DNA of 40,255 nucleotides from a virus (taxonomy: Duplodnaviria > Heunggongvirae > Uroviricota > Caudoviricetes). The DNA lies in the IMG/VR virus record IMGVR_UViG_2874951433_000007, positions 1 through 40,255 of that record, one strand, 5' to 3'. Of the stretch, positions 29,144 to 30,858 are shown one piece after another; within the stretch, counting starts at the first letter, position 1, and every line of letters starts with the position of its first letter. Below the pieces are notes generated by a model that did not search any database, was not told where the DNA came from, and saw nothing but the letters and a program-made list of their open reading frames with translations. Both the position numbers and the translations under genes were made by a program.

Positions 29144-29186
29144 TCCCGCATTTCGGCGGGAATGAGGACCATGACTGTTAAAGAGC
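29144..29186 (-). promoter_or_regulatory. nutR (boxA + boxB)
   Basis: Minus strand GCTCTTTAACA (boxA, rrn-like) then UCCCGC-CGAAAU-GCGGGA hairpin (boxB); identical elements at nutL. Confidence 0.65.
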
Positions 29187-29193
29187 GGTGTTA

Positions 29194-29388
29194 CTATTTG
29201 TTTTTCTTGTTGCTTGGGAAAGGACGAACTTCCTCTCCAATCACACTGCCATCAGGCTTTACCGTAACCATGATGTTACGGCCTGCCAGAATGGCCTTGC
29301 TGATAGCGCACTGGATTACACCAAAGTCACTGGCTGCTTTAGCCTGTCCATGGATTTTGGCGTAATCGGCAAGTGTCATTCGAATCAT
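29194..29388 (-). CDS. cro: Cro repressor
   Basis: [62 protein letters not shown] matches recalled lambda Cro; start ATG 29388 with GGAGAG RBS. Confidence 0.85.
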
Positions 29389-29417
29389 ATGCACTCTCCG
29401 TTATTAACCATGAACAA

Positions 29418-29458
29418 AGAATACTACAGGTATTCAAAGCAATCAATACTCAGGGTAT
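29418..29458. promoter_or_regulatory. OR operators (ATACnnnnnGGTAT) overlapping PR (-35 TTGATT 29441..29446, -10 TATTCT 29418..29423, minus strand)
   Basis: atactacaggtat (29421..29433) and atactcagggtat (29446..29458); mirror-image pair at OL; promoter hexamers with 17-bp spacer. Confidence 0.55.
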
Positions 29459-29494
29459 TTTTAGTTTAAGTACCTTAGCTATTAGAATTAAGCT

Positions 29495-30211
29495 ATGGAA
29501 AATAAAAAATCACTGACGACAGAACAGCTCGAAGACGCTAAGCGGCTTAAGGCTTTGTATGAGTCAAAAAAGAAAGAATTGGGAATAACCCAATACTCAA
29601 TCGCTGATGAACTGGGTATCACCCAAGGAGCGGTAGGGCATTATCTTAATGGCAGAAACGCGCTAAACGTTGAGGTTGCATCTGGTTTTGCACGATTGTT
29701 GCAAGTCTCAATTGCTGATTTTAGCCAGTCAATTGCTGCCAAGGTTGCAGAACAGGCAGAAAGCCTTAAGAGCGATGCCAACGTAAGGTATGCAGGGGAA
29801 TACAGAGCAGGAAAGAGGTATCCGGTGTTAAGCAGTATCCAGGCTGGCTCGTGGTGTGAAGCATGCGAACCATACACCATTAAAGACATAGATGTTTGGC
29901 TTGAGTCTGACGCGCATATTCAAGGTAATGCGTTCTGGCTTAAAGTGGAAGGTGATTCAATGACGGCACCGGTTGGGTTAAGCATTCCAGAGGGAACATT
30001 CGTTCTTTTCGATACCGGACGGGAGGCGATCAACGGCAGCTTGGTCATAGCAAAACTTTCTGACTCTAACGAAGCAACATTCAAGAAGCTGATAATCGAC
30101 GGCGGAAATAAATACCTCAAGGGACTTAATCCTGCATGGCCTCTCGTGCCAATCAATGGAAACTGCAAGATTATAGGCGTTGCAATTGAGACAAAACTAA
30201 GGCTGGTTTGA
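29495..30211 (+). CDS. cI: CI repressor (HTH + LexA/S24-like C-terminal domain)
   Basis: 238 aa; KKSLTTEQLEDAKRLKALYESKKKELGITQYSIADELGITQGAVGHYLNG similar to recalled lambda cI but divergent; FWLKVEGDSMTAP cleavage-domain motif. Confidence 0.85.
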   Translation: MENKKSLTTEQLEDAKRLKALYESKKKELGITQYSIADELGITQGAVGHYLNGRNALNVEVASGFARLLQVSIADFSQSIAAKVAEQAESLKSDANVRYAGEYRAGKRYPVLSSIQAGSWCEACEPYTIKDIDVWLESDAHIQGNAFWLKVEGDSMTAPVGLSIPEGTFVLFDTGREAINGSLVIAKLSDSNEATFKKLIIDGGNKYLKGLNPAWPLVPINGNCKIIGVAIETKLRLV

Positions 30212-30228
30212 TCACGCAAGGGGCGATT

Positions 30229-30597
30229 ATGGTTGGAACCGCTATAGCAAGCTTTTTGGGGATGTTGGCAATCTCAACAATTTACGGCTTAGCGCATGCT
30301 TTTATTGCGAAATCTCTATCAGAAAAAATAAGCCAGGCTTGGGCGCATAGATCAGCTCGTTTCATGATTCTGGTGATCATGGCAATACAAGGGATATCTG
30401 CATTTATCCTCTATGGATCAAGCTTATACCTATTGTATCAAGGCGCGACATTTACGTCTTACACCAGTGATTACGGAACTCTATACGATGGTAGTGAAGA
30501 CATCTCTATGGCTTGGATCGTCTTTGGTTTATCTATGGCCGTGTCTGTTGTAGCAGACATCATTAAGGTAATTCTCGTCTTAACCTTCGCTGACTAA
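30229..30597 (+). CDS. Small 3-TM inner-membrane protein co-transcribed with cI (rex position); candidate exclusion protein
   Basis: Start ATG 30229 (aagggg RBS) just after cI stop; three hydrophobic helices; no recognisable family. Confidence 0.6.
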   Translation: MVGTAIASFLGMLAISTIYGLAHAFIAKSLSEKISQAWAHRSARFMILVIMAIQGISAFILYGSSLYLLYQGATFTSYTSDYGTLYDGSEDISMAWIVFGLSMAVSVVADIIKVILVLTFAD

Positions 30598-30730
30598 CTC
30601 ATAATCCCGGCAGCAATAGCTATCGGGATCCACTTCACATATCCCGCATAAAAAGCACTGAACAAGCAGACACCGAAAAAAATAAATATCTTTTGTATTC
30701 ATTTGCTTATCATTATTTCACCCAAAATAA

Positions 30731-30771
30731 ATACCTTGGGTATTTACACAATAAAATACCTACAGTATTCT
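30731..30771 (+). promoter_or_regulatory. OL operators overlapping PL (-35 TTTACA 30743..30748, -10 TATTCT 30766..30771)
   Basis: ataccttgggtat (30731..30743) and atacctacagtat (30756..30768), same spacing as the OR pair. Confidence 0.55.
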
Positions 30772-30817
30772 TTAGCCATCAGCAGGACGCTGGAAGCCAA
30801 ACGGAACAGCTTGGCAG

Positions 30818-30858
30818 GCTCTTTAACATTGATGGGATTGTCCCGCCGAAATGCGGGA
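30818..30858 (+). promoter_or_regulatory. nutL (boxA + boxB)
   Basis: gctctttaaca (30818..30828) then tcccgccgaaatgcggga hairpin (30841..30858) upstream of N. Confidence 0.65.

Follow-up and report, generated by a model that had tools for sequence, protein, structure and literature searches.

The 40,255-nucleotide (nt) stretch of DNA analyzed here (the window), corresponding to positions 1 to 40,255 of the IMG/VR record IMGVR_UViG_2874951433_000007 from a virus of the Caudoviricetes, contains 2 copies of a boxA-boxB pair, which very probably represent the two N-utilization (nut) sites of a lambdoid antitermination system with the specificity type of coliphage HK620. On the plus strand, nutL (30817..30858) consists of boxA (30818-30828), a 12-nt spacer (30829-30840), and boxB (30841-30858), which has a 6-bp stem and the loop CGAAAU. 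On the minus strand, nutR (29142..29187) consists of boxA (29176-29186), a spacer, and a boxB core (29144-29161), the stem of which is extended to 8 bp (29142-29163). The two sites are identical to the HK620 features annotated as 'nutL; putative N-utilization leftward' (42 nt) and 'nutR; putative N-utilization rightward' (46 nt), respectively.

A motif search of the window reproduced exactly the positions and sequences that an initial annotation, made from the sequence without database searches, had given for both boxA/boxB pairs. Its statement that the two sites carry identical elements was borne out as well, with exactly 2 copies of each in 40 kb. For boxA (GCTCTTTAACA), these were the only matches even with 1 mismatch permitted. 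However, at least 2 matches to this 11-mer were obtained in 15 of 100 shuffled sequences, so that boxA alone constitutes weak evidence. The boxB 18-mer TCCCGCCGAAATGCGGGA (TCCCGC-CGAAAT-GCGGGA) was likewise found only twice with up to 2 mismatches permitted, and it had no match across 100 dinucleotide-preserving shuffles. As is characteristic of lambdoid N/nut systems, a boxA with the core GCTCTT(T)A is present in the early transcript at both sites, located 5' of boxB on the transcribed strand, and the boxB stem-loop follows roughly 8-15 nt 3' of it in the same transcript; nutL has a 12-nt spacer and nutR one of 14 nt, or of 12 nt with the 2 additional A-U pairs of its stem included. The initial annotation had also placed one pair in the pL leader before N (plus strand) and the other after cro (minus strand), which agrees with our analysis: the nutL boxA starts approximately 40 nt past the pL start, which, following lambda, we assigned to the conserved AUCAGCAGGACGC, and 148 nt ahead of the N ATG, while the nutR boxA starts 8 nt past the cro stop codon, with nutR preceding a hairpin and cII. 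Thus, one site is found after pL and before N, and the other after cro and before tR1/cII.

The assignment to the HK620 type is based on a 2.3-kb region (28900-31238) that is 98.8% identical to coliphage HK620 (GenBank AF335538). Besides nutL and nutR, the promoters pL and pR and the operators OL1-2 and OR1-3 are all identical in sequence, and the N proteins differ at only 2 of 90 residues, with an identical arginine-rich motif (ARM). In HK620, identity ends at the N stop codon, beyond which the downstream genes are unlike, and the remainder of the window represents a P22-like mosaic without a single close relative. With the ARM ADDNARNRRRARRQAQREQA and the hairpin UCCCGC-CGAAAU-GCGGGA at both sites, the system in the window belongs to the HK620 N class.

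The N gene itself (30966-31238, plus strand) is the first gene of the pL operon and encodes a small basic protein of 90 residues with an N-terminal ARM (approximately residues 9-28), as is typical for N/nut systems. Its membership in the Pfam family N_peptide (PF25694, E = 1.1e-15), together with the nut annotation in HK620 and the finding that boxB tracks the ARM (see below), supports the N-type antitermination that the initial annotation had assigned to this gene. The accompanying description of the protein as having P22 gp24-like termini held for the two ends, which read MTVVITY compared to MTVITY at the start and LPNVAIYAAGYRKSKQLTAR compared to LPGVALYAAGHRKSKQITAR at the end (36% identity overall), but not beyond them, since neither the ARM nor boxB is of the P22 type, and over residues 34-63 the protein is almost the same as phage 21 N (56% identity over residues 1-64). 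N is a mosaic, with P22 gp24-like termini and a phage-21-like middle. Its ARM is close to neither the P22 nor the phage 21 ARM; it has an RRRxRR..QAQ core in common with lambda and an A-x-x-R-x-x-A-R-R pattern in common with phage 21. No PDB chain homologous by sequence was found for N, which is probably a disordered protein.

When the sites were compared to those of P22 and phage 21, as proposed in the initial annotation, boxA proved to be that of phage 21, while boxB was unlike both. Phage 21 has the identical boxA at both sites and a nearly identical pL leader up to boxA, and its boxB also carries a hexaloop starting with C (CUAACC). However, its ARM is GTAKSRYKARRAELIAERR instead of ADDNARNRRRARRQAQREQA, its loops are CUAACC/CUAACA instead of CGAAAU, and the stems are unrelated. 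Since ARM and boxB loop differ, the phage 21 specificity class was rejected despite the matching boxA and N residues 34-63. P22 has the end residues of N and the general layout in common with the window, and its boxA contains a CGCTCTTTA core, but it encodes the ARM GNAKTRRHERRRKLAIERD and has boxB hairpins with a GACAA-type loop (GCGCU-GACAA-AGCGC in nutL and CCGCCGACAACGCGG in nutR). The P22 gp24 specificity class was rejected as well, as ARM and boxB differ and, within the protein, only the termini are alike. Lambda shares the architecture, the presumed mechanism, and a similar ARM core (RRRxRR-QAQ), and the GAAA contained in the loop described here makes a GNRA-like fold plausible. In contrast, the lambda boxA is shorter (CGCTCTTA), its boxB has a pentaloop (GCCCU-GAA(A/G)A-AGGGC), and its N comprises 107 amino acids, with Trp18 and an unrelated C-terminal part. 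Judging from these sequence comparisons, the ARM/boxB pair is a specificity class of its own, distinct from those of lambda, P22, and phage 21. As stated in the initial annotation, boxA matches the rrn consensus, UGCUCUUUAACAA; a text search of 2 NusB/NusE papers yielded no sequence string for this consensus. The rrn consensus is bound by NusB and NusE more tightly than the lambda boxA.

A strong link between N and the repeats comes from a comparison of ARM and boxB across 193 sources (loops are given as DNA here), in which the type of boxB changes together with the N ARM from phage to phage, as expected for cognate specificity. The ARM ADDNARNRRRARRQAQREQA is accompanied by the loop CGAAAT in both nutL and nutR in this window, HK620, and CUS-3. 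The ARM GTAKSRYKARRAELIAERR occurs with CTAACC in nutL and CTAACC or CTAACA in nutR in phages of the phage 21 type, for which DE3, HK629, mEp235, and PA28 were examined; GNAKTRRHERRRKLAIERD with GACAA in nutL and CGACAAC in nutR in P22; and DAQTRRRERRAEKQAQW with GAAGA in nutL and GAAAA in nutR in lambda. Further classes were found among IMG/VR loci, for example the ARM KAREIRKLERARQHK with GATTC in nutL and GTTTC in nutR. Two natural chimeras are reciprocal to each other: HK629 N combines residues 1-36 of phage 21 with HK620-type residues 37-90 and is found with phage 21 boxBs, while CUS-3 N combines HK620-type residues 1-64 with a phage-21-type C-terminus and is found with HK620-type boxBs at both sites. 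Moreover, in 2 IMG/VR loci (L102 and L103), the ARM (SDNSKNRYRARRAAK) accounts for most of the differences between their N and the Enterobacter-type N. The corresponding changes (D10S, A13S, R14K, R17Y, Q22A, and Q24K) co-occur with a switch of the loop from CGAAAU to CUAGCA/CUAACA; each of the two boxBs carries one of these loops, and the nutL and nutR stems are unrelated. In the reciprocal chimeras and the near-isogenic L102/L103, boxB tracks the first approximately 36 residues of N, in line with ARM-boxB recognition. Correlative as it is, this relationship comes closest, among the computational evidence, to addressing whether the hairpin is compatible with binding by the N ARM, a point raised in the initial annotation.

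L102 and L103, in which an otherwise Enterobacter-type N carries the ARM ASDNSKNRYRARRAAKREQA, constitute an intermediate N class that resembles a natural bridge between the specificities of the HK620 and phage 21 types. A separate observation concerns phage 933W, whose pL leader (L086 2954-3020) contains a hairpin, GCGCTGACAAAGCGC, that is identical to the P22 nutL boxB (L085 3137-3170). Despite the matching hairpin, the ARM of 933W N (NSRSRRRERLKAKALANG) differs from that of P22, and no obvious boxA-like sequence is present in the shown stretch of the 933W leader.

The conservation of the sites was analyzed across 3 collections: 80 IMG/VR loci whose N is at least 97% identical, 98 loci related to 2 divergent N proteins, and 4 prophage loci (Cedecea, Enterobacter, and metagenomes) with N 59-74% identical and the ARM conserved. 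In total, 134 sources encode the ARM ADDNARNRRRARR[QA][AL]QR, corresponding to 116 distinct sequences, as some contigs had been fetched twice. A tblastn search with the 36-residue ARM segment alone gave no match, probably owing to the low-complexity filter. Sites were defined as boxA-N(10-30)-CGAAAU hairpin and could be nutL-like or nutR-like. Both were present in 102 of the 116 distinct sequences, and the remaining ones, judged from the exceptions inspected, are mostly truncated or rearranged. Besides contigs ending short of the sites, these exceptions include 2 defective prophages (L038 and L056, approximately 2300-3000, minus strand), in which a deletion has fused a truncated cro to late-region genes, entailing the loss of nutR; a locus (L027, 1-700) in which a gene for a transposase like those of insertion sequences lies directly upstream of N, entailing the loss of nutL; and phage mEp213.

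Within the class, the CGAAAU loop is invariant, boxA varies solely in its last bases (AACA, AAAA, or, once, AGCA), and the nutR spacer varies at several positions. In the Cedecea and Enterobacter prophages, neither the ARM nor the CGAAAU loop has changed, although the identity of N is only 59-66%. Stem changes preserve pairing, with U-A replaced by U.G in 5 of 17 distinct sequences, G-C by G.U in 1 of the 17, and G-C by A-U in the Cedecea-type nutR stem, which additionally contains a C.C mismatch. Overall, 89.7% of the stem positions were paired across sequences, compared to 83.8 ± 1.3% in shuffles (none of 500 shuffles was as high) and no more than 62% when the registers were slid. This modest covariation supports a hairpin that would be read mainly via the loop and loop-proximal pairs. 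Furthermore, the nut sites persist across at least 4 cro/cI modules, among which there are at least 4 different cro C-termini and the two sites lie about 1088, 1165, 1630, or 1674 nt apart, and the mosaic breakpoint is located exactly at boxA.

Phage mEp213 (L054 3571-3650; also L193 3121-4878) has 2 annotated N genes, with the HK620-type N located approximately 1.8 kb downstream of a lambda-type nutL (CGCTCTTAAAAATTAAGCCCTGAAGAAGGGC). This copy lacks boxA, the spacer, and its own boxB 5' arm. Comparison with positions 31846-31921 and 30841-30870 of the window revealed that at the joint TTGCCCTCC|GAAATGCGGGAAC the 5' half of the pL-operon terminator, corresponding to the 31900 hairpin of the window, is joined to the 3' half of boxB. 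The HK620-type N of mEp213 is probably an orphan passenger without a cognate nut site.

The boxB hairpins noted in the initial annotation were predicted to be stable as isolated RNAs, with a 6-bp stem and a 6-nt loop for nutL (-10.5 kcal/mol, z = -3.1) and an 8-bp stem and a 6-nt loop for nutR (-12.5 kcal/mol, z = -3.9); none of 200 shuffles folded as stably as either. The CGAAAU loop could take the form of a canonical GNRA tetraloop, GAAA, with a closing C.U mismatch. No Rfam family covering nut sites was found, the sole match being a chance hit to SCARNA7 (E = 0.76).

By homology to lambda, RNA polymerase starting from pL or pR would transcribe boxA, spacer, and boxB. The nascent boxB is predicted to fold into a G+C-rich hairpin with the loop CGAAAU, to which, judging from the comparative sequence evidence, the arginine-rich N-terminus of N would bind, while the host factors NusB and NusE (S10), as in lambda, would bind boxA. 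N tethered to the RNA would then, together with NusA and NusG, render the polymerase termination-resistant, again as known for lambda. On the right, the modified polymerase would pass tR1 into cII, O, and P; on the left, it would pass the terminator at 31900-31929 into the recombination, kil, and cIII genes.

Several points weigh against this interpretation. Searches of the literature returned genome-comparison papers only, and no experiment on binding or antitermination by an HK620-type N was found. The binding mode is not simply transferable from known complexes, as the hexaloop is unlike the lambda and P22 pentaloops. The invariance of the sites partly reflects shared ancestry, since most related loci are near-identical Escherichia coli prophages, and the core stem shows few true double compensatory changes, amounting to a single G-C to A-U lineage that carries the C.C mismatch. 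In addition, the 60-nt whole-leader contexts are no more stable than shuffles (z = -0.45 and -0.64), which would, however, be expected if boxA has to remain single-stranded.

Among other explanations, the repeats might be boundary or linker sequences that are kept as homologous-recombination joints between mosaic modules and have no role as RNA. Indeed, mosaic breakpoints fall at the sites: the sequence upstream of the nutR boxA alternates between at least 4 cro types, with the switch exactly at boxA, insertions occur directly after the nutL boxB, the recombination joint of mEp213 lies inside boxB, and the cI-N interval of CUS-3 is annotated as 'bsq5; boundary sequence'. However, a purely recombinational role leaves unexplained why boxB switches with the N ARM at both sites in chimeras, why an invariant loop is found beside pair-preserving stem changes, and why the two copies are oriented alike with respect to transcription. 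While we regard this explanation as improbable, boundary and RNA roles are not mutually exclusive.

It appears more improbable still that, as in rRNA operons, Nus factors bring about antitermination through the rrn-like boxA alone, with boxB and N being dispensable or modulatory. The long-form boxA, which at both sites is that of phage 21 and lies very close to the rrn consensus, fits such a role, but conservation and joint switching are as tight for boxB and the ARM as for boxA, and N is kept in essentially all of these phages. The same hairpins could also be taken for terminators or attenuators, or for operator-like DNA palindromes bound by a repressor, instead of N-binding RNA, as they are G+C-rich perfect inverted repeats near promoters. 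Yet they are not followed by a U-tract (AACCAAAG after nutL and AAUACAAC after nutR), and the terminator scan made no call on either of them. Furthermore, this immunity type has other 17-mers as its operators (OL1-2 and OR1-3), and the hairpins occur beside several unrelated repressor/cro modules, which rules out immunity-specific DNA sites. We consider this explanation the least credible of all, and interpret the repeats as N-utilization sites.

The surrounding immunity region displays a textbook lambdoid layout. On the plus strand, pL (TTTACA-17-TATTCT; 30743..30778) is an exact match to the HK620 feature in AF335538 and was also detected in the promoter scan (30743-30771); it is overlapped by OL1 (30754-30770) and OL2 (30729-30745), both exact matches to HK620 features. 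On the minus strand, the same applies to pR (29411..29446) as well as OR1 (29419-29435), OR2 (29444-29460), and OR3 (29468-29484). Transcription from pR leads through cro (29194-29388, minus strand; PF09048 Cro, E = 3.6e-26, and annotated as cro in HK620) to cII (28807-29085, minus strand; PF05269 Phage_CII, E = 7e-45), which is the first gene after nutR and tR1. The tR1 region between nutR and cII contains the hairpin GCGCAU-AAGUUG-AUGCGC (29119..29136, minus strand; -12.1 kcal/mol, z = -3.0), and the tR1 annotated in HK620 (7 nt, TACAACG) corresponds to 29136-29142, directly 5' of this hairpin on the transcript. In related loci, a common variant, GCGCAUC-AGUU-GGUGCGC, keeps and lengthens the stem, as 2 substitutions create an extra C-G pair, which suggests selection for the structure of this hairpin.

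On the opposite side, cI (29495-30211, plus strand; HTH_3 and Peptidase_S24 domains) is followed by a small open reading frame (ORF) without a Pfam match (30229-30597, plus strand). It is predicted to encode a membrane protein of 122 amino acids, located between cI and pL, that corresponds to HkaS in HK620. As it occupies the position of rexAB in lambda, this HkaS-type ORF is a candidate for an exclusion gene expressed in lysogens or a moron gene. Between nutL and N, the pL leader contains an inverted repeat, CCAAAG...CTTTGG, followed by GGGGTG(A/T)(C/G)GTG (30860-30889, plus strand), which is common to the pL leaders of lambda, P22, phage 21, 933W, and this phage, whose boxBs differ; from its sequence, it would be a boxC-like or leader-processing element. 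Within it, the comparison of leaders points to a putative boxC-like G/U-rich element 3' of the nutL boxB and of the inverted repeat, GGCTTTGGGGTGACGTG (30873..30889, plus strand), labeled by analogy to GGCTTTGGGGTGTGTG of lambda.

Downstream of N, the terminator scan identified a strong intrinsic terminator of the pL operon (31900..31929, plus strand), UUGCCCUC-CAAUGU-GAGGGCAG followed by U8 (-12.9 kcal/mol), which by analogy would be the first obvious barrier for the N-modified polymerase to pass. The ORF directly after N (31239-31466) has no Pfam match. In an Enterobacter prophage (L092 4273-4572), the gene directly after the N_peptide gene matches a different Pfam family, PF26859 Phage_N_antitermin, so that 2 N-like genes are arranged in tandem there. 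Past the terminator, a 354-residue ORF (31846-32910, plus strand) has a long low-complexity center rich in E, A, K, and R; its listed start overlaps the terminator, and the true start is probably the ATG at 31943 after GGAGGATAT. Among the feature names of related phage records matching 25001-40255, 'TolA protein' and 'Ea22 protein' are listed.

The nut sites as such are already known, as the HK620 record lists the same sequences as putative nutL and nutR, and the mechanism is textbook knowledge. Our analysis confirms the early-gene map, with pL, nutL, N, and the terminator on one side and pR, cro, nutR, tR1, and cII on the other, and characterizes the immunity and antitermination module of the prophage as HK620-type; apart from annotation, its value is modest. 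The residual novelty is limited to an ARM/boxB class that is very common in prophages of E. coli, Enterobacter, Salmonella, and Cedecea and seemingly lacks biochemical characterization. Here, we lean slightly toward the view that the ARM ADDNARNRRRARRQAQREQA and the CGAAAU hexaloop constitute a further, experimentally uncharacterized ARM-RNA specificity, orthogonal to those of lambda, P22, and phage 21, in which CGAAAU may be a true GAAA tetraloop on a C.U mismatch. The determinants of this specificity might be deduced from near-isogenic natural pairs such as that provided by L102 and L103. The natural series could serve the study of ARM-RNA specificity switching, and the HK620-type pair could supply another orthogonal peptide-RNA tether.

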